A stretch of DNA of 34,701 nt, from the IMG/VR virus record IMGVR_UViG_3300033998_000166, positions 1 through 34,701 of that record; one strand, written 5' to 3'. Of the stretch, positions 1,717 through 8,391 are shown piece by piece. A model generated the notes under the pieces. That model was not told the DNA's origin. It worked only from the letters and a program-made list of their open reading frames with translations, and did no database searches. Position 1 is the stretch's first letter. The number at the start of each line of letters is the position of its first letter. The position numbers and the translations under genes were made by a program. The stretch comes from a virus.

Positions 1717-3117
1717 ATGAGCATAAAAGAAGTGCTCGACTTTTTGAACATCTCTAAATGGCATGATGCCGGTTACAAAGGCCAGGGCGTGAAAGTTCTG
1801 ATGATTGACGATGGATGGGAAGACAGGCCTTGGTTCGATGGGAAGCTCCATATAGTCCATTCCAATGGGCCATCGGGTAGCCAGCACGGAATCAAAACTG
1901 CCGAAACTCTCCATATCGTGGCCCCGGAAGCGGAAATATATGTGCATGAAGTTTCATATCCCGCCTACCCTACACCGGACGTAGTGCTTCGGTATATTCT
2001 CGAAAACGACATACACATTGTTTCTATGTCTATGGGCGGATCTATCTTCAGACAGCCGGAATACAGAAGCCTGCTGGCAGAAGCCACAAAAAAGGCGATA
2101 TTTTTCACTTCGGCAGGAAATACGGGTGGGCCATTAACTGGGGCCGCCAACGATGATGAATATTGGATAGCTGTAGGAGCAGCATATCTCTTGAAAGGAA
2201 AACCTATGCGAGAGAGCTATTCTTCGATAGGCCCTTCGCTGGACGTAATGGGCCTAACAGGAATAGAAGTCCATTCCTCCGACGGGCAGAGGCTATTTGC
2301 ACCAGAAGGAACATCTTTCTCCTGCCCCGTTGTGGCAGGAATGATGGCAATATACTACTCGTGGTTTTATGAACAATATCGCCGCTATCCCACACCTGAC
2401 GAGGCAAAAGCATTCCTGTTCGCCAATTGCATGGATATGGAGGAACAAGGCCGGGACGACCGAACGGGTCACGGCCTTTTTGTATTGCCGAAAGAGATAC
2501 CGGAGGTGAAGGTGGTGAATAGACCGAAATATATCATTGTCCATCACAGCGCTACGAAGCAGGGTGATACCGAAACCTTCCGCCGCTACCACGTAGAAGT
2601 AAACGGCTGGAAGGATATAGGCTACCACTACGTCGTCAATAACGGCACATATAAATCCGACGGCCTAATAGAAAAAGGCAGGGACGAAAAAGAAGTAGGC
2701 GCACACGCTATCGGCTACAACGACAAATCAATCGGTATATGCCTTGTTGGAAACTTCGATGAAGACAGACCAACAGAAAAGCAGATGCAATCCCTTATTC
2801 GTCTATGCAAGGACATCATGAGGCGATACAATATCCCGGCCAAGAACGTGCTTGGGCATAGGGAAACCGGGGCAAAGAAGACTTGCCCAGGCAAAAACTT
2901 CGATATGGAGGCGTTGAGAAGGATGCTTGAGGAAAAGGTTATTACGCTTAGGGTTGGCAGCAAAGAAATGACCGTGAATGGCCGCAAAATTGCCCTCGAC
3001 GTACCCGCCAAGGTCGAAAACGGCAGGACGTTAGTCCCTCTCCGGGCTATTGCGGAGGCGTTCGGTTTTAGTGTCCATTATGACGACAAAACCAAGACTA
3101 TTACGATTCGGGGGTGA
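1717..3117 (+). CDS. Endolysin with three domains: S8 subtilase-like, N-acetylmuramoyl-L-alanine amidase (amidase_2/PGRP type), and a Cu-amine-oxidase-N-like wall-binding repeat
   Basis: S8 triad context: VLMIDDGW (Asp), SQHGIKTAE (His), GTSFSCPVVAG (Ser). Amidase_2 motifs: IIVHHSAT, GYHYVV, GAHAIGYNDKSIGICLVGNF, LGHRE..KTCPGKNF. C-terminal repeat: NGRTLVPLRAIAEAFGFSVHYDDKTKTITI. RBS is AGGAGG. Confidence 0.85.
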   Translation: MSIKEVLDFLNISKWHDAGYKGQGVKVLMIDDGWEDRPWFDGKLHIVHSNGPSGSQHGIKTAETLHIVAPEAEIYVHEVSYPAYPTPDVVLRYILENDIHIVSMSMGGSIFRQPEYRSLLAEATKKAIFFTSAGNTGGPLTGAANDDEYWIAVGAAYLLKGKPMRESYSSIGPSLDVMGLTGIEVHSSDGQRLFAPEGTSFSCPVVAGMMAIYYSWFYEQYRRYPTPDEAKAFLFANCMDMEEQGRDDRTGHGLFVLPKEIPEVKVVNRPKYIIVHHSATKQGDTETFRRYHVEVNGWKDIGYHYVVNNGTYKSDGLIEKGRDEKEVGAHAIGYNDKSIGICLVGNFDEDRPTEKQMQSLIRLCKDIMRRYNIPAKNVLGHRETGAKKTCPGKNFDMEALRRMLEEKVITLRVGSKEMTVNGRKIALDVPAKVENGRTLVPLRAIAEAFGFSVHYDDKTKTITIRG

Positions 3118-3123
3118 AATGGT

Positions 3124-3543
3124 GTGAACGAGAAAACTATTTTCCAATCCGTCGTTGCAGTGGGCGGTTCATTAGTTACGTATCTCTTCGGGGGGTGGTC
3201 GGCATTGCTGGGGGTGCTGGTCTCTTTCGTCGTTGCAGACTACATCACCGGCGTGCTGGCCGCTTTTTCGGAGAAGAAGCTATCCAGCGAGATTGGTGCG
3301 AAGGGTATTGCCAAGAAGGTGTTTATTTTTGTGTTCGTTGCCCTTGGAAATCTAGCTGATGTCGCTATTGGTGCTAATGGAAACATCATACGCAATGCAG
3401 TGATATACTTCTACCTTGCGAACGAGCTTTTGAGCATCATCGAGAACGCTGGCAGGATGGGCGTGCCTGTCCCTAGCGTTCTCAAGCGCGCGGTGGAAAT
3501 TCTGAATAGCAAGGGAGAAGGGAAGATAGAACCCCCGGCGTAG
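3124..3543 (+). CDS. Holin (phage_holin_4_1 / TcdE-like)
   Basis: GTG start after GGGGGTG. There are several hydrophobic helices and the motif ADYITGVLAA..KKLSSEIGAKGIAKK. The gene is adjacent to the endolysin. Confidence 0.8.
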   Translation: MNEKTIFQSVVAVGGSLVTYLFGGWSALLGVLVSFVVADYITGVLAAFSEKKLSSEIGAKGIAKKVFIFVFVALGNLADVAIGANGNIIRNAVIYFYLANELLSIIENAGRMGVPVPSVLKRAVEILNSKGEGKIEPPA

Positions 3544-3560
3544 GTCCGGGGGTGTTTTTG
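3531..3560 (+). terminator. Rho-independent terminator after the holin gene
   Basis: Stem ACCCCCGG/CCGGGGGT with a 7-nt loop, followed by GTTTTT. Confidence 0.75.
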
Positions 3561-3615
3561 TGCAAAAATTTGCAGTCCCGAAGGCGACTGCAAGAAATTG
3601 CAGTGCAGGCTAGAA

Positions 3616-3645
3616 CCCCCGGCCATCAAGCCGGGGATTTTTTTA
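3616..3645 (+). terminator. Second terminator-like hairpin
   Basis: Stem CCCCGG/CCGGGG followed by ATTTTTTT. It is preceded by TAGAACCCCCGGC, which also occurs at the holin 3' end. Confidence 0.6.
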
Positions 3646-3751
3646 TTCCCTCATATTTTCACAATATTGCGACTTTATGCCATACCCCGAAAGCCTTGCC
3701 GGATGCGGGTTTCGGGAATCGTGCTTCGAGAAAAATTTTTGGGGGGAACTA

Positions 3752-3780
3752 TTGACAATGACACGGAAACGTGTCATAAT
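3752..3780 (+). promoter_or_regulatory. Sigma-70-type promoter of the accessory operon
   Basis: TTGACA (3752-3757), a 17-nt spacer, then CATAAT (3775-3780). Confidence 0.7.
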
Positions 3781-3806
3781 ATACTCAGAAAGACACGGAA
3801 ACGTGT
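3761..3806. promoter_or_regulatory. Two copies of the palindromic operator ACACGGAAACGTGT
   Basis: Exact 14-bp palindrome ACACG-GAAA-CGTGT at 3761-3774, inside the promoter spacer, and at 3793-3806, just downstream of the -10. The centres are 32 bp apart. Confidence 0.7.
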
Positions 3807-3831
3807 AACAAAGAGGAAAGGAGAGGGTAAA

Positions 3832-4023
3832 ATGAAAGCGTATATCCTATCGAGAGCAAACGGAACGGTGCAAATTGGGAAGACTTTATATCAACCCTGT
3901 ACAGGAGCACAATACAAAGTTTCCAGTATACCGCGCAAAGGTGAATATGAAGCTGTAATCGAAGTTTCCGAAAACTCGATGCAAGGAGCCCGAGAAGCAC
4001 TCCAAAAAGACGCCGAGGGATAG
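3832..4023 (+). CDS. Small hypothetical protein (63 aa), first gene of the accessory operon
   Basis: ATG follows AGGAAAGGAGAGGG. It is the in-frame C-terminal part of ORF-track 3598..4023, whose upstream part spans terminators and the promoter. Confidence 0.6.
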   Translation: MKAYILSRANGTVQIGKTLYQPCTGAQYKVSSIPRKGEYEAVIEVSENSMQGAREALQKDAEG

Positions 4024-4149
4024 CGCAAGGGAGGGAGCCGTGAAACCCGGCTCAGGGCCGAAAGGCCCGTAGGCGGAAGCCAAAAACAATGCGCCGCCCA
4101 CCGTTTCATGGGGCGCAATAGAAATACCGGTGGGCAAGAAGGAGGAAAG

Positions 4150-4536
4150 ATGTTGCATGAATATACTCGAAAGAACACAATAGAGGCGTTTTTCAAATGT
4201 GATGAAAAAGGAGAAGATGCTACCATTGCCGTACGACAGACTGTTGTCTCGCCCCGCCGATTGAACCCAGTTTCTCCTTTATATGTAGAAGAGAGAGCTA
4301 CAAAATCGACGGACGGTTTTCACCCAATAATACACAAGGTGTTCAGACAGGCATTTGACCCCTTGTATGGCACACAACCTGTTATTGTCGAGGTAGTAGT
4401 GAATGTAGTACGTAATCCTTGGGGTGATAGAGCTAGGTATGTAGAAAATATCTGCATTGTCCAGGATGAGGGCGAATTGGCTGAAGGGGCCTGGAAGACA
4501 AAAGCTCTCATAAGTGCGCTCAAAACACCTCTATGA
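4150..4536 (+). CDS. Hypothetical protein (128 aa), second gene of the accessory operon
   Basis: ATG 4150 follows AAGGAGGAAAG and is preferred over the ORF-track ATG 4108, which has no RBS. No motif was recognised. Confidence 0.65.
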   Translation: MLHEYTRKNTIEAFFKCDEKGEDATIAVRQTVVSPRRLNPVSPLYVEERATKSTDGFHPIIHKVFRQAFDPLYGTQPVIVEVVVNVVRNPWGDRARYVENICIVQDEGELAEGAWKTKALISALKTPL

Positions 4537-4554
4537 GAGCGAGGAGGAAACAAA

Positions 4555-4734
4555 ATGGACCTTGAATGGATAACCCTAGCCGAAGCCGCACGGAGGTGGG
4601 GGCGAGCAGATTCCACCCTGCGGCACGCCATACGCCGGGGCCGGTTCACGCCGGACGAGGTACGCAAGTCCGGCAAGGTCTGGCTAGTGCGGACTTCGGC
4701 AATGACACGACTTTACGGAAAGCCCCGTGAGTAG
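4555..4734 (+). CDS. Small HTH DNA-binding protein (59 aa; below the ORF-track cutoff)
   Basis: Hand translation gives MDLEWITLAEAARRWGRADSTLRHAIRRGRFTPDEVRKSGKVWLVRTSAMTRLYGKPRE. The RBS is GAGGAGGAAA. The pattern is of the excisionase/MerR-like HTH_17 type (L..AA...G.s..tlr..i..G). Confidence 0.65.
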   Translation: MDLEWITLAEAARRWGRADSTLRHAIRRGRFTPDEVRKSGKVWLVRTSAMTRLYGKPRE

Positions 4735-4750
4735 GGGCTTTTGTTTTTTT
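4720..4750 (+). terminator. Rho-independent terminator of the accessory operon
   Basis: Stem AAGCCCC/GGGGCTT with a T-rich tail (TTTTGTTTTTTT). Confidence 0.8.
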
Positions 4751-4827
4751 GCTCTTCCAAGAAGGAATTTTTGTGAAAATATTGAAGAAAATATATACAG
4801 AAACTATCTTGGGAGGTGTTTTCTTCT

Positions 4828-5502
4828 ATGTTGTCTAAAACAATCAAAATCATCATTATTGGCATTCTCATCGTAGCCCTGGCCGGTGGTGCAGTTTTCG
4901 CAGCGCAGGCTAAGTATAAGGGCTTTCCCGTAGCAAACTTGATGCTGAACGGGCAACGAGTAACTCCGCCGAGCCCTGCCATCATTATTGACGGAACAAC
5001 CTACGTCCCGTTGCGGTTCGTCAGTGAATCGATGGGTATCAAGGTCGCATGGGACGGAAAAACGCAAACGGTCATCATCGGAGAAAAGCAGGCCGCATCT
5101 ACCCCAGCTCAGCCCAAGAATGAAATCGCGGTCAAGGACGCTTCGGGCAAGGTCCTCTATGCTCTCAGAATCAACAAAGTCACGACAATGACCGAGCGCA
5201 ACCCCTTCGCTGACACGAATCCTGTGCAGGTTGTGATGATTGACTATACCTATACCAACGTAGCGAGCGATGAAGATGTATACATCAGCGAGCTCAACTT
5301 TAAGGTGGTGGACTCTGCCGGTAAGGTGGGCTATCTATATCCGAACTCTCCCAAGAATTATCCGCAACGCATACCCAAAGGTACTACCTGCAACGCCCAG
5401 GTAATTTTCGGACTCGACACCAAGAGCGACAAGGTCAAGATACATTTCTACAAGGACCTATTCGGCCCCGTCACCGCTACGTTCGAACTGCCGGTTGAAT
5501 AG
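4828..5502 (+). CDS. Membrane-anchored accessory protein: Cu-amine-oxidase-N-like domain plus beta-rich DUF4352-like C-terminal domain
   Basis: ATG 4828 lies 9 nt after GGGAGGTG. There is an N-terminal TM helix IIIIGILIVALAGGAVFAA. The segment NGQRV..IIIDGTTYVPLRFVSESMGIKVAWDGKTQTVIIG matches the endolysin C-terminal repeat type. Confidence 0.7.
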   Translation: MLSKTIKIIIIGILIVALAGGAVFAAQAKYKGFPVANLMLNGQRVTPPSPAIIIDGTTYVPLRFVSESMGIKVAWDGKTQTVIIGEKQAASTPAQPKNEIAVKDASGKVLYALRINKVTTMTERNPFADTNPVQVVMIDYTYTNVASDEDVYISELNFKVVDSAGKVGYLYPNSPKNYPQRIPKGTTCNAQVIFGLDTKSDKVKIHFYKDLFGPVTATFELPVE

Positions 5503-5522
5503 TCTCCTCTCTGAACAAGCAT

Positions 5523-5556
5523 GGCCCAGCGATTTCCCGCTGGGCCTTTTTATTTT
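5523..5556 (+). terminator. Rho-independent terminator
   Basis: Stem GGCCCAGCG/CGCTGGGCC followed by TTTTTATTTT. Confidence 0.8.
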
Positions 5557-5586
5557 CGGTAGACTTCTACCAAAATTTCTACCGAA
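5555..5586. repeat. Putative integrase arm-type sites (left arm)
   Basis: TTCGGTAGA (inverted), CTTCTACC and TTTCTACCGAA lie within 32 bp. The same TCTACCGAA core recurs at 5839-5860. Confidence 0.55.
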
Positions 5587-5682
5587 AAAACAGAAACAGA
5601 CAGGGAAAAACTGAAATGAATCGAAATACTTACCCGGCATGAAAAGCCGCAAAATCGCATTGTTGCAGAAAAACTGAAACGT

Positions 5683-5719
5683 ATAAAAACAAAAAGAGGC
5701 GGATGAAAATATCCGCCTC
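5683..5719 (-). terminator. Terminator for leftward (int) transcription
   Basis: Stem GAGGCGGAT/ATCCGCCTC (5696-5704/5711-5719). On the - strand it is followed by CTTTTTGTTTTTAT. Confidence 0.65.
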
Positions 5720-5723
5720 AAAA

Positions 5724-5779
5724 CTCAAAATCCGGTGGCCGATGAGGCCGTGTGGGTTCGACTCCCACCTTCGGCACCA
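5724..5779 (+). other. attP core: 3' portion of a tRNA-Leu(CAA)-like gene, from the anticodon loop to CCA
   Basis: The segment reads as follows: CTCAAAA loop, TCCGG stem, a long variable arm GGCC-GATGA-GGCC, T-arm GTGGG-TTCGACT-CCCAC, acceptor 3' strand CTTCGGC, then A-CCA. No matching 5' half (GCCGAAG...) lies upstream. Confidence 0.7.
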
Positions 5780-5790
5780 GAGAAATTAAG

Positions 5791-5824
5791 GCTTCCGTGA
5801 GATGAAACCGGAAGTCTTTTTTTA
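5791..5824 (+). terminator. Terminator-like hairpin after the tRNA fragment
   Basis: Stem CTTCCG/CGGAAG followed by TCTTTTTTT. Confidence 0.7.
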
Positions 5825-5838
5825 TTGCTTCTACTCTT

Positions 5839-5860
5839 TTTCTACCGAATTTCTACCGAA
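5839..5860. repeat. Putative integrase arm-type sites (right arm), tandem TTTCTACCGAA x2
   Basis: Two exact abutting 11-bp copies that overlap the integrase stop codon. Confidence 0.55.
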
Positions 5861-6993
5861 CCATTATTTTCCATTTTCTTATATAGAAGTCGCTCGATTA
5901 TGTCGGCGGCTTCTTTTTTCATTGCATCATTTACATGCGTGTATACTTCTTCCGTTATGGCCGTGGTAGAATGACCGAGCCAGTCGGCAACAATCTTGGG
6001 GGAAAGCTTGCCGTATCCCATCAATAGTGTGCTGTTCGTATGCCGCAGGTCGTGGAAGCGAATCCTGGGAAGATTGTTCTTTTCTATGAATTCTTGAAAT
6101 CGTTTTGTGAAGGTGGATGGGTTCCAGGGTTCGCCGTTCTGCCGACATACGACAAGACTGTAGTCCTTGTATTCGGGGCCCAGGAATAATTTTATCTCCA
6201 TCTGCTTTTTGCGGTGGGCTTTAAGAAGCACGATTAGACCATCGGGCAGATACATTTTGCGCTGACTTTCCTCCGTTTTAGGTTCTTTGAAGAAAATTTC
6301 CCCGGGGACCCGGGCAAGTGCTCGTCTGATTTCCAGGTATCCCTTTTGTAGGTTCACGTCACTCCATCGAAGACCAAGAATCTCGCCCCTGCGCAGGCCG
6401 AGGGCGGCGGCAAGGTGGATGGGCACCTCGAATTCCGTTCCCCGTGCGGCCTGCATAATTTGAATAAGGTCCTCCAACTCCAGGGCTTTACCTGGAGTTT
6501 TTTGTTTCTTGGGACAATTTACGAACTGAAGGGGGTTGCGTTCAATAAGTTGCATTCTTGCCGCGTAGTTAAGGGCGCTTGACAAGGTTCGGTATATATT
6601 TCGAACCGTTGTGGAACTCAAACGTCCTTCCTGGAGCAGGTTGGAAAAGAATTTATTGAGTTGCATGGGGTGAAGTTTTTGAAGCGGTATTTTACCGAGA
6701 GCGGGAACGATATATTTTTCTACATGCAATTTATAGCCTTCCAGTGTTGTTTTGGAAAGTCTTGGTTCGCACTGCGTCCACAACCATTCCTGCAGGAATT
6801 CGCCTAACGTCATTTTTTGCGGTTCAAGTAGCAGCCCTGCCTGGGCTTTCTTTAGAAGCTCGGGCAGGGCTTTTTCTGCATCGGACTTTTTATCAAAGCC
6901 TGAATACCACTTCCTTTTTCTTTTACCAGACGCGTCGTATACGTCCAGCACGATGTAATATTTATTCCCCTTCTTGACGATGGACCCTCGCAT
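5842..6993 (-). CDS. int: Tyrosine integrase with an N-terminal arm-binding (AP2-like) domain
   Basis: Catalytic context: LRRGE, HDLRHT, GHSTTAITEEVYTH. The start is taken at the ATG preceded by GGAGGAGG (MRGSIVKKGNKYYIV), not the ORF-track TTG at 7011. Confidence 0.9.
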   Translation of the reverse strand: MRGSIVKKGNKYYIVLDVYDASGKRKRKWYSGFDKKSDAEKALPELLKKAQAGLLLEPQKMTLGEFLQEWLWTQCEPRLSKTTLEGYKLHVEKYIVPALGKIPLQKLHPMQLNKFFSNLLQEGRLSSTTVRNIYRTLSSALNYAARMQLIERNPLQFVNCPKKQKTPGKALELEDLIQIMQAARGTEFEVPIHLAAALGLRRGEILGLRWSDVNLQKGYLEIRRALARVPGEIFFKEPKTEESQRKMYLPDGLIVLLKAHRKKQMEIKLFLGPEYKDYSLVVCRQNGEPWNPSTFTKRFQEFIEKNNLPRIRFHDLRHTNSTLLMGYGKLSPKIVADWLGHSTTAITEEVYTHVNDAMKKEAADIIERLLYKKMENNGSVEIR

Positions 6994-7007
6994 TATATCC
7001 TCCTCCC

Positions 7008-7688
7008 TCAAAAATTGATTATTGCCCTTACTACTTTCCCAAGAACAATTACGTTGGTCTTAGAGGGGTCAATTACTCTGGGTTTGTGTTCCGGGTTGGA
7101 ACTATGCGGAACTAGCGTTATCGTTGAATCGGTTTTGTAAAAGCGTTTTATCGTTGCATTTTCATTATCCACCATCACCACTGCAATTTCGCCGTTGTTA
7201 ACTACGCTTTGCCTTCGCACTATAACTATATCGCCATCGCATATTCTATCCAGGTTCATACTGTCGCCGATAACTCTGAGCCCGAAATATTCTCCATCCT
7301 TTGCCAAATCTTCTGGGAGCTCTACGTATCCTATAATGTTTTGAACCGCCAAAATTGGTTCTCCTGCTCGAATAATGCCGACAACGGGGATTTTTACTGC
7401 TGGGGTTAAAGGGATTTCTTCTCTGGCTATTAAGTCTATGAAGTTAAGGTCCGGGTCGCTTCTGCTTTCATCCCCTCTTTTGATGAGCTCGCTAGGATTA
7501 ACCCCAAGAACGTTTGCAATGGCGGACAATTTTTGTAAACTCGGACTAAAACGCCCGCCTTCCAGGTCGGCAAGATAGCTTTGGGATATGCCGCACTTCT
7601 CCGCTAGCTGTTTTTGCGTCAATCCTGCCTCTTTCCGCAATTCCTTTATCCTTTTACCTACCATTTTTTGAAATTCTTTCTTTTCCAT
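7008..7688 (-). CDS. CI/LexA-like repressor (XRE HTH plus S24 peptidase)
   Basis: HTH segment LTQKQLAEKCGISQSYLADLE. Putative Ala-Gly cleavage context IIRAGEP. S24 motifs GDSMNL and ATIKRF. The gene is divergent from the cro-like gene. Confidence 0.9.
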   Translation of the reverse strand: MEKKEFQKMVGKRIKELRKEAGLTQKQLAEKCGISQSYLADLEGGRFSPSLQKLSAIANVLGVNPSELIKRGDESRSDPDLNFIDLIAREEIPLTPAVKIPVVGIIRAGEPILAVQNIIGYVELPEDLAKDGEYFGLRVIGDSMNLDRICDGDIVIVRRQSVVNNGEIAVVMVDNENATIKRFYKTDSTITLVPHSSNPEHKPRVIDPSKTNVIVLGKVVRAIINF

Positions 7689-7731
7689 TCAGACACCTCC
7701 TTTCGCATATTTTATCAATATCTCCGCTATT

Positions 7732-7760
7732 ATAATATCATTATTTACGATATTTTGCAA
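7732..7760 (-). promoter_or_regulatory. Leftward promoter (repressor/int)
   Basis: On the - strand: TTGCAA, 17-nt spacer, TATTAT. Confidence 0.6.
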
Positions 7761-7815
7761 GTAAAAAGAAGAAAAAATCCGAATAACAAAGAACGATAAC
7801 ATTTTCGTCCAAGAT

Positions 7816-7832
7816 TTCGTGAAATACACGAA
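7816..7832. promoter_or_regulatory. Palindromic candidate operator TTCGTG-AAATA-CACGAA
   Basis: Perfect 6-bp arms, located immediately upstream of the rightward -35. Confidence 0.5.
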
Positions 7833-7841
7833 TCGTTACAC

Positions 7842-8135: not shown

Positions 8136-8391
8136 AACCTGCTACGACCCCAGAAACGCTGCATACCGCATCGAGGATATGCCGTTTCTTCTTACAGTTT
8201 CGGAAACGGCAAAAATCCTGCGGTGCGGCAAAAACAAAGTATATGAACTTGCAAAGACGGAAAAAGATTTCCCAGCCATCCGGTTATCAGGGGCTATCAG
8301 AATACAGAGAGATGGTCTGATACGGTGGCTGGAAAGAAGAGTGAAAGGAGGGGGAAATGATGCTGAGGCTATCGAGAGAAACCGAAGATAA
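8128..8391 (+). CDS. Excisionase-type (HTH_17) DNA-binding protein; start uncertain (8128 TTG or 8179 ATG)
   Basis: The segment LLTVSETAKILRCGKNKVYELAKTEKDFPAIRLSGAIRIQRDGLIRWLE fits the Xis/AlpA-type winged helix. The N-terminal part of ORF-track 7999..8391 overlaps the cro-like gene. Confidence 0.6.
   Translation: MAKTCYDPRNAAYRIEDMPFLLTVSETAKILRCGKNKVYELAKTEKDFPAIRLSGAIRIQRDGLIRWLERRVKGGGNDAEAIERNRR

Follow-up and report, generated by a model that had tools for sequence, protein, structure and literature searches.

We analysed a viral DNA of 34,701 nucleotides (nt), IMG/VR record IMGVR_UViG_3300033998_000166 (hereafter the window, meaning this whole stretch), which is the 34.7-kb genome of a temperate siphophage recovered from a JGI metagenome. 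Between its lysis genes and its integration module lies a small transcription unit on the plus strand, which a preliminary description had likened to the operons in which anti-CRISPR (acr) genes are followed by an anti-CRISPR-associated (aca) regulator gene. The unit contains three open reading frames (ORFs) on the plus strand: ORF1 (3832-4023; 63 amino acids, aa), ORF2 (4150-4536; 128 aa) and ORF3 (4555-4734; 59 aa). The start of ORF1 is at 3832; 3833 would be one base off. The ORFs share a common promoter and a single terminator, and each is preceded by a GGAGG-type ribosome-binding site. Our analysis confirmed the two small genes of 63 and 128 aa, with good ribosome-binding sites and without a recognised family, as well as the 59-aa helix-turn-helix (HTH) protein encoded by the last gene.

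The promoter, of the sigma-70/SigA type (3752-3780, plus strand), consists of a -35 hexamer TTGACA (3752-3757), a 17-nt spacer and a TG-extended -10 hexamer CATAAT (3775-3780); it scored 11/12, in agreement with the near-consensus promoter described earlier. The strong terminator expected after the HTH gene was also found, as an intrinsic terminator at 4718-4750 (plus strand) with a 9-base-pair (bp) stem at 4718-4742 followed by a T-run, and it overlaps the stop codon of ORF3. The 14-nt sequence ACACGGAAACGTGT (ACACG-GAAA-CGTGT) occurs exactly twice in the window, at 3761-3774 in the promoter spacer and at 3793-3806 downstream, with a start-to-start spacing of 32 bp. Both copies lie where the preliminary description had placed an exact palindrome; the sequence is in fact an inverted repeat interrupted by an asymmetric GAAA, each arm (ACACG/CGTGT) being 5 bp long. 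Each copy lies within one unit of a 30-nt direct repeat (80% identity). In 35 kb, a 14-mer would not be expected to occur twice without mismatch by chance; the shuffle expectation of 2.06 for this 14-mer counts matches with up to three mismatches.

We refer to the two repeats as the putative operators O1 and O2. O1 (3758-3777), with its core at 3761-3774, has 8-bp arms, ATGACACG-GAAA-CGTGTCAT; it takes up the promoter spacer and reaches into the -10 hexamer, a classic position for steric repression. O2 (3792-3806; GACACGGAAACGTGT) is located 32 bp, or about three helical turns, downstream of O1 on the same face of the helix, at roughly +6 to +20 of the transcript, counted from a predicted transcription start. 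RNA folding indicated that O2 can form a 5-bp GNRA-capped hairpin in the 5' untranslated region (UTR; -6.4 kcal/mol, z -4.2). A search of the whole window, including the cI-cro region, revealed no further operator copy.

ORF3 has an isoelectric point of 11.4 and belongs to the winged-helix, excisionase/MerR-like family HTH_59 (PF20038; E 1.6e-18, 66.9 bits against a gathering threshold of 27), with residues 6-57 aligned to positions 8-64 of the 66-position profile. Eight close homologues are 78-90% identical to it; among approximately 50,000 GenBank phages we found only distant relatives (35-52% identical) in other contexts. To our knowledge, HTH_59 is not a described Aca family. A literature search found HTH_59 named in one phage-genome paper and no link to Aca, and the operator sequence did not turn up in any paper by full-text search. 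The GC content of ORF3 is 63%, that of ORF1 and ORF2 is 44-45%, and that of the window is 48%. This contrast is consistent with a mosaic origin of the frame around the regulator and the genes within it, and arginine-rich coding contributes to the ORF3 figure. ORF3 is the putative autorepressor of the operon.

Homologues of ORF3 (P0013, P0014 and P0020; 85-90% identity) occupy the same place in L104, in L105 and in L106-L108. Because L106, L107 and L108 represent one phage, four independent cassettes could be compared, including that of the window. They share a layout of an S8/Amidase_2 lysin, a holin, a conserved non-coding stretch of about 90 nt, the promoter, the cargo genes, the HTH_59 gene in last position, the terminator and a recombinase. 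The HTH gene was last in all four intact cassettes, and in every locus examined it lay 3' of variable genes and directly before the same terminator, which is kept in L104, L105, L106 and L109. The promoter and twin operators are kept in the same place in L104, L105 and L106.

The genes between promoter and regulator differ from one cassette to the next. The window encodes proteins of 63 and 128 aa, L104 of 162, 110 and 144 aa, L105 of 162, 62 and 98 aa, and L106 of 169 and 141 aa. These small, soluble and unannotated proteins fall into eight mutually unrelated families that occur in mixed combinations, except that a weak C-terminal motif is common to the 98-aa and 141/144-aa proteins. The two copies of the 162-aa protein, in L104 and L105, share 96% identity, and the 144-aa protein of L104 shares 78% identity with the 141-aa protein of L106. 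Of the eight sister cargo proteins, six are strongly acidic (net charge -8 to -19), and the two 162-aa copies are basic. None of them matched Pfam above threshold, nor was any found in PHROGs or PADLOC. These comparisons indicate that the conserved HTH gene and the twin-operator promoter are kept as a frame and that the cargo between them is replaced.

L109 to L113, with an HTH gene of the P0018 type, are rearranged cassettes that retain the upstream region, the -35 hexamer TTGACA, the HTH gene and the terminator, and they carry a DNA methyltransferase gene downstream on the opposite strand. Having been rearranged with loss of the operators, they were rejected as a third cassette type.

The operators of the four cassettes fall into two classes. 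In the window and L104 the promoter reads TTGACAATG-ACACGGAAACGTGT-CATAAT and is followed by AGAAAG-ACACGGAAACGTGT, whereas in L105 and L106 it reads TTGACAATG-AAACGAATTCGTTG-TATATT, with AAACG-AATT-CGTTG at the O1 position, and is followed by AGAAAG-AAACGA(T/A)AACG(T/A)TT. Both operators of each promoter are thus of the form ACACG-N4-CGTGT in the former pair and AAACG-N4-CGTT(T/G) in the latter. The promoter frames align base for base; the half-site change is symmetric in both operators (C to A and G to T), and the flanks are invariant. The HTH proteins divide along the same line: the window and L104 encode RWGRAD-STLRH-AIRRGRF...SGKVW (G16, H24 and K41), and L105 and L106 encode RW(D/N)RAD-STLRN-AIRR(G/R)RF...SGG(V/T)W (D/N16, N24 and G41). 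In a fold of this kind, residues 16, 24 and 41 would lie at the start of the recognition helix, inside it and in the wing, respectively.

The joint change of operator half-sites and HTH helix supports autoregulation by the HTH protein. Moreover, although L104 and L105 have a cargo protein in common (96% identity), they belong to different operator and HTH classes; the operator class thus goes with the HTH and not with the cargo. The 29-nt block comprising the promoter and O1 is 100% identical between the window and L104, where the holin DNA is 81% and the HTH DNA 89% identical, and it is likewise 100% identical between L105 and L106, where the HTH DNA is 79% identical. Such identity amid diverged neighbours points to selection on the operators. 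The covariation provides good comparative support for ORF3 acting on the repeats. Autoregulation of the HTH gene through twin repeats, as proposed in the preliminary description, gains from this covariation and from the retention of the frame during cargo turnover, and it is a prediction from sequence comparison.

To survey this operator type, IMG/VR was scanned for ACACG-N4-CGTGT occurring twice within 8-30 nt; with 20 specified bases, a handful of chance matches was expected. The scan yielded 70 loci (L034-L103). In 50 of these, TTGACA or a one-mismatch hexamer, which was outside the search pattern, lay 1-5 nt upstream of one copy, with a -10 hexamer at the right distance, and in nearly all of these 50 loci the second copy was 29-36 bp downstream. 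The presence of -35 and -10 hexamers around the operator in so many loci indicates that the promoter-operator design is widespread. The central 4 nt vary (GCAC, AAAA, AAAG, GAAA and others), and the exact ACACGGAAACGTGT is found in two loci, L065 and L068. Most of the twin-operator promoters drive long early operons, and weak matches to ArdC-N and Amidoligase_2 were seen among the first genes. A looser scan of the frame (TTGACAATGANACG...) returned mostly chance matches or differently regulated promoters, none with HTH_59.

HTH_59 was encoded in 6 of the 70 loci. In the DNA fetched for the other 64 it was not detectable; these promoters drive long early operons, and other small HTH proteins are encoded there, many of them XRE-like. 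Related frames with GACG/CGTC or TACG/CGTA half-sites were also without HTH_59. Other regulators therefore appear to use this operator type too, and the motif is not diagnostic of ORF3. This raises the possibility that the repeats of the window are bound by another regulator, from the host or from elsewhere in the phage, and that ORF3 has a different DNA-binding job. We consider this unlikely, given that in none of the four cassettes has the shuffling of cargo separated operator class from HTH class, that all six surveyed loci with an HTH_59 gene have it directly downstream of the operators (within approximately 1.1 kb) on the promoter strand, and that the window contains neither a second operator site nor a second candidate regulator near the unit.

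Candidates for such a regulator were considered individually. Known host operators (the NrdR box, the Cheo/LexA box, cre, and the sites of Rex and CRP) differ in half-sites or spacing and were dropped. The cI-cro intergenic region (7689-7841) has inverted repeats of its own, TTCGTG-AAATA-CACGAA and ACGAATCGT, which are probably the operators of the prophage repressor. Since these repeats (TTCGTG-N5-CACGAA) differ from O1 and O2, the prophage repressor is unlikely to bind the latter.

Several non-coding elements of the unit are also conserved. The region upstream of the promoter (3650-3745, plus strand) is 89-94% identical in L104, L105 and L106-L108, although the adjacent holin genes are only 66-81% identical, and part of it (3691-3740) survives in L109-L113. 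Within it are a hairpin, CCCGAAAGCC...GGGTTTCGGG, and, at 3659-3672, the near-palindrome TCACAATATTGCGA. The window has no other copy of the palindrome TCRCAATATTGCGA that precedes the promoter. The ORF1-ORF2 spacer (4024-4149, plus strand) is a GC-rich element of 126 nt (61% GC, versus 44-45% in the flanking genes). Its 27-nt core, GGGCCGAAAGGCCCGTAGGCGGAAGCC (4055-4081), contains two GNRA-capped hairpins and recurs unchanged in L019, whose coding DNA shows 51% identity (33% at third codon positions) and no exact run of 10 nt or more. The spacers of the window and L019 (45-161) each fold into four consecutive hairpins. Scanning metagenomes for the core gave three chance matches inside high-GC coding regions, which were discarded, and a viral scan gave none.

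Downstream of the core, a leader of about 55 nt (4089-4146; ATGCGCCGCCCACCG...GGGGCGCAATAGAAATACCGGTGGGCAAGAAGGAGG) ends at the ribosome-binding site of ORF2. With 84% identity it also precedes three cargo genes, unrelated to one another, in L104, L105 and L106, where the leader or junction elements are located at 4754-4820, 1225-1293 and 2672-2823, respectively. Covariation lends weak support to a possible RNA structure of the leader, with a single compensatory pair, which was matched in 112 of 500 shuffles. Rfam searches at gathering and permissive thresholds identified no known RNA family in the unit. The leaders may be conserved junction modules that serve as recombination linkers for cargo exchange, as translation or stability elements, or as both.

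The similarity of ORF3 to excisionases was examined as an alternative explanation of its function. ORF3 matches PHROG 2655, which is labelled 'excisionase' (E 1.8e-14), and weakly Pfam Exc and HTH_17; RefSeq gives the same label to HTH_59 proteins of Geobacillus virus E2 and phiMMP01, and the ORF3 gene is located about 1.1 kb from the integrase gene. ORF3 might then be a recombination directionality factor, with the operon controlling excision. However, HTH proteins that are 88-90% identical are encoded beside a tyrosine integrase in two phages, the window and L104, and beside a large serine recombinase in a third, L105. As a directionality factor acts with one particular recombinase, this speaks against excisionase activity. 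In both the window and L104, the usual position of Xis, directly behind cro, is taken by a canonical HTH_17 gene (8179-8391 in the window; E 4e-12). In addition, the 'excisionase' labels rest on similarity only, and a promoter of this strength driving Xis constitutively would destabilise lysogeny. An excisionase function of ORF3 is therefore very unlikely.

ORF1 and ORF2 constitute the cargo of the window. ORF1 belongs to a family of small phage proteins with nine members in 5.8 billion clusters and an invariant N-terminus (MKAYILS..GTVQIG..QPCTG); its relatives are encoded in phage or plasmid arrays of small genes, where their neighbours vary. Its predicted fold has five beta-strands and a C-terminal helix (AlphaFold predicted local distance difference test, pLDDT, 93). 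ORF2 is a near-orphan: an exhaustive HMMER scan of 1.84 billion representatives detected a single true relative, P0011, with 50% identity. Its predicted fold is all-beta with eight strands and a C-terminal helix (pLDDT 83; predicted template modelling score 0.72). P0012, a 648-aa protein with repeats and a C-type-lectin-like domain, matched ORF2 with an E value of 3e-4 and was judged spurious. Relatives of the operon or of ORF2 were absent from the GenBank phages in both DNA and protein searches. The preliminary description had recommended structure prediction and defence-database searches; for these two proteins they gave no match to an unrelated known function and no positive identification either.

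The contig L019, the only one with an ORF2 homologue, carries this gene together with an ORF1-like C-terminus and the intergenic core. This co-occurrence would suit, as would the make-up of the present unit, a small, putatively autoregulated operon with an HTH protein, a toxin-antitoxin or abortive-infection pair made up of ORF1 and ORF2 or of ORF2 and ORF3, with the HTH protein as autoregulating antitoxin. But Pfam and PADLOC revealed no toxin or antitoxin family, the closest relatives of ORF1 are paired with unrelated genes, and the genes upstream of the HTH gene are freely exchanged and so cannot be its fixed partner. Such a pair is highly improbable, the least probable of the explanations that we weighed.

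Our preferred explanation, which we regard as probable, is that the unit is an independent cassette of accessory genes that regulates itself, a 'moron' following acr-aca logic, in the lysis-integration interval of a temperate Bacillota siphophage. The strong housekeeping-type promoter would fire in the absence of repressor, either as the phage enters or, at a basal rate, in the lysogen, and one mRNA would give ORF1, ORF2 and ORF3. As ORF3 accumulates, it would occupy, probably as dimers, O1 in the spacer and -10 region and O2 just past the start site; two identical 5-4-5 repeats three helical turns apart would allow cooperative binding. Occupancy would close the promoter and shut the operon down. 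An RNA-level effect at the O2 hairpin is conceivable, and such an effect has reportedly been seen with Aca2. The frame (upstream region, promoter, operators, HTH gene and terminator) would be inherited, with ORF1 and ORF2 as exchangeable cargo that is swapped possibly by recombination at the conserved leader sequences. The anatomy of the unit, the persistence of the frame through cargo turnover and the joint change of operator and HTH are observed; binding, repression and timing we infer.

The function of the cargo is a separate question. We tentatively favour, as quite possible, a role in anti-defence or host take-over, which fits because the cargo proteins are small and soluble, turn over fast in a tightly autoregulated frame, are mostly acidic in the sister cassettes and are predicted to have novel folds. 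Alternatively, the same frame might hold cargo that serves the lysogen at a steady level, as prophage-expressed defence, superinfection exclusion or conversion; we regard this as possible, though somewhat less likely, and about as likely as some other role altogether. The slot between lysis genes and attP is a classic hotspot for morons and prophage defence and suits such genes just as well, negative autoregulation suits constant low expression, and the next gene, ORF4, encodes a membrane-anchored, surface-type protein. ORF3 itself matches the PADLOC entry mad1 (E 1.2e-7), a small HTH protein belonging to the candidate MADS defence system, and a Eubacterium prophage has an HTH_59-DUF488 fusion and a 273-aa protein in the same slot. 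Yet none of 10 cargo proteins tested matched a PADLOC defence model, and the cargo, being small, soluble, mostly acidic and without enzymatic or membrane domains, resembles inhibitors more than it does defence effectors.

The Eubacterium pair was found in L002/L023 (approximately 4980-6451), a prophage in a metagenome-assembled genome, and also in L003 and L004. There the fusion gene is followed by the gene for the 273-aa protein, which has no Pfam match, and in L002/L023 the two genes occupy the holin-to-integrase interval. They may form a two-gene defence or conflict module.

A number of observations weigh against an autoregulated cassette with anti-defence cargo. The covariation involves two operator classes and effectively one evolutionary switch in four cassettes, and distant HTH_59 proteins beside ACACG operators have N, Q, K or R at the H24 position, which implies that there is no simple recognition code. 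The 64 twin-operator loci without detectable HTH_59 belong here as well, as do L109-L113, where the sequence diverges exactly after the -35 hexamer and the operators are lost. Relatives of ORF1 occur in many unrelated contexts without HTH_59. ORF1 and ORF2 had no match in Pfam, PHROGs, PADLOC or PDB sequences, none of which is dedicated to Acr proteins; the ORF2 model had no fold match in PDB or BFVD and the ORF1 model none in PDB, the best template modelling scores being approximately 0.3-0.4 with E values above 0.1. Both proteins are near-neutral in charge and not acidic. With confidently predicted folds that match no known sequence or structure, an anti-defence role of ORF1 and ORF2 remains one that we infer from architecture. 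Of the earlier proposal that the two upstream proteins are anti-defence, exclusion or conversion factors, the acr-aca-like architecture stands, and a resemblance to any known family, by sequence or by predicted fold, was not found.

A conserved HTH anchor with variable small upstream genes is the defining property of acr-aca loci, for which those of Aca1 and Aca2 are the paradigms; acrIIA of Listeria prophages reportedly lies by the lysin gene. Like these loci, the present unit is a single operon in which small, fast-turnover genes precede a conserved small HTH gene, the HTH being the constant anchor and the upstream genes variable. Its strong promoter has two inverted repeats, in the core promoter and in the 5' UTR or nearby, and it is located at a prophage end beside lysis genes. 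It differs in that its HTH protein belongs to the winged-helix, excisionase-like HTH_59 family, that none of the cargo proteins is similar to known Acr or anti-defence proteins in sequence or, for ORF1 and ORF2, in fold, and that a conserved structured leader separates the cargo genes. The unit shares three architectural features with acr-aca loci and lacks recognisable anti-defence cargo; it is not a demonstrated anti-CRISPR locus.

The unit is a moron in the sense of Hendrix, that is, an autonomous transcription unit with terminators on both sides, between the lysis and integration modules, with a composition unlike that of its neighbours (ORF3 63% GC, window 48%) and a content that varies among relatives. 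A dedicated autoregulator and a conserved, cargo-exchanging frame have, however, not been described for classic morons. C proteins of restriction-modification systems are likewise small HTH proteins that autoregulate their own operon through paired inverted repeats in the promoter, but they are XRE-type, usually encoded first, act as both activator and repressor, and control restriction-modification genes, none of which was seen here. HTH_59 proteins of Geobacillus virus E2, Parageobacillus phage NIIg3.2 and C. difficile phages, annotated as 'excisionase' or 'putative regulatory protein', share the Pfam domain with ORF3 (41-52% identity over it). Unlike ORF3, these are approximately 150-170 aa long and are encoded in or after a region that includes ArpU in NIIg3.2, and they are not last in a cassette between lysis genes and attP. 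No cultured phage among those searched in GenBank carries the cassette.

The large terminase of the window is 52-62% identical to the terminases of Caldibacillus, Bacillus and C. difficile phages. Source samples were a JGI metagenome and SRR10854627. The gene order around the unit runs from tail-fibre genes through endolysin, holin and two terminators to the unit, followed by a 228-aa gene (ORF4), an attP-like region, the integrase gene and cI. The endolysin (1717-3117) has Peptidase_S8, Amidase_2 and Cu_amine_oxidN1 domains and is followed by the holin (3124-3543). The pair of intrinsic terminators 3' of the holin (within 3527-3650) insulates the unit on its upstream side; a duplicated 13-mer, TAGAACCCCCGGC, lies alongside them at 3527 and 3611, and an inverted repeat, TGCAAAAATTTGCAGTC/GACTGCAAGAAATTGCA, is located between the two. 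ORF4 (4816-5502) has its own terminator at 5523-5546 and combines an N-terminal membrane anchor with a Cu_amine_oxidN1 domain, shared with the endolysin, and a DUF5067/DUF4352-like domain. Only a remnant of it was found in L106 and it is absent from L104, indicating a second moron that varies independently; its product is possibly a surface or exclusion protein. The unit had been placed between the holin and attP, and it does lie within that interval without abutting attP, since ORF4 intervenes.

The attP-like region with arm-type repeats, probably attP itself, extends from 5503 to 5860. It contains a 13-nt repeat, AATTTCTACCGAA, at 5574, 5837 and 5848, likely an integrase arm site, as well as a sub-threshold tRNA-like fragment at 5738-5776; in L106 the matching place enters the 3' end of a tRNA-like sequence. 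The tyrosine integrase (5842-7011) and the LexA-like cI repressor (7008-7688) are both encoded on the minus strand.

As far as could be established, the regulator family, the operators and the cargo are all new for an autoregulated accessory cassette. The four cassettes yield eight small protein families without known relatives, and the confident models of ORF1 and ORF2 resemble no solved structure. The change of the operator together with the recognition helix amounts to a natural switch of specificity, and the conserved leaders between cargo genes hint at a route of gene exchange in such loci. It is conceivable, and we put it forward with reserve, that HTH_59 proteins of this type form an undescribed Aca-like repressor family and that their promoter signature (TTGACA-N3-NNACG-N4-CGTNN overlapping the -10 hexamer, and repeated about 30 bp further downstream) identifies a pool of uncharacterised anti-defence genes carried by Bacillota phages. 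If so, the switch from ACACG/His to AAACG/Asn would let co-resident phages avoid cross-repression, and cargo would be exchanged as cassettes at structured leaders that also set translation. ORF1, ORF2 and the 162-, 110-, 144-, 62-, 98- and 169-aa proteins would then represent eight new inhibitor families with new folds. Few such markers of accessory genes exist for Bacillota phages, and with ORF3 as an Aca-like protein, HTH_59 and the promoter-embedded twin 5-4-5 operators would offer two guilt-by-association handles on their accessory genes, possibly including anti-defence genes.

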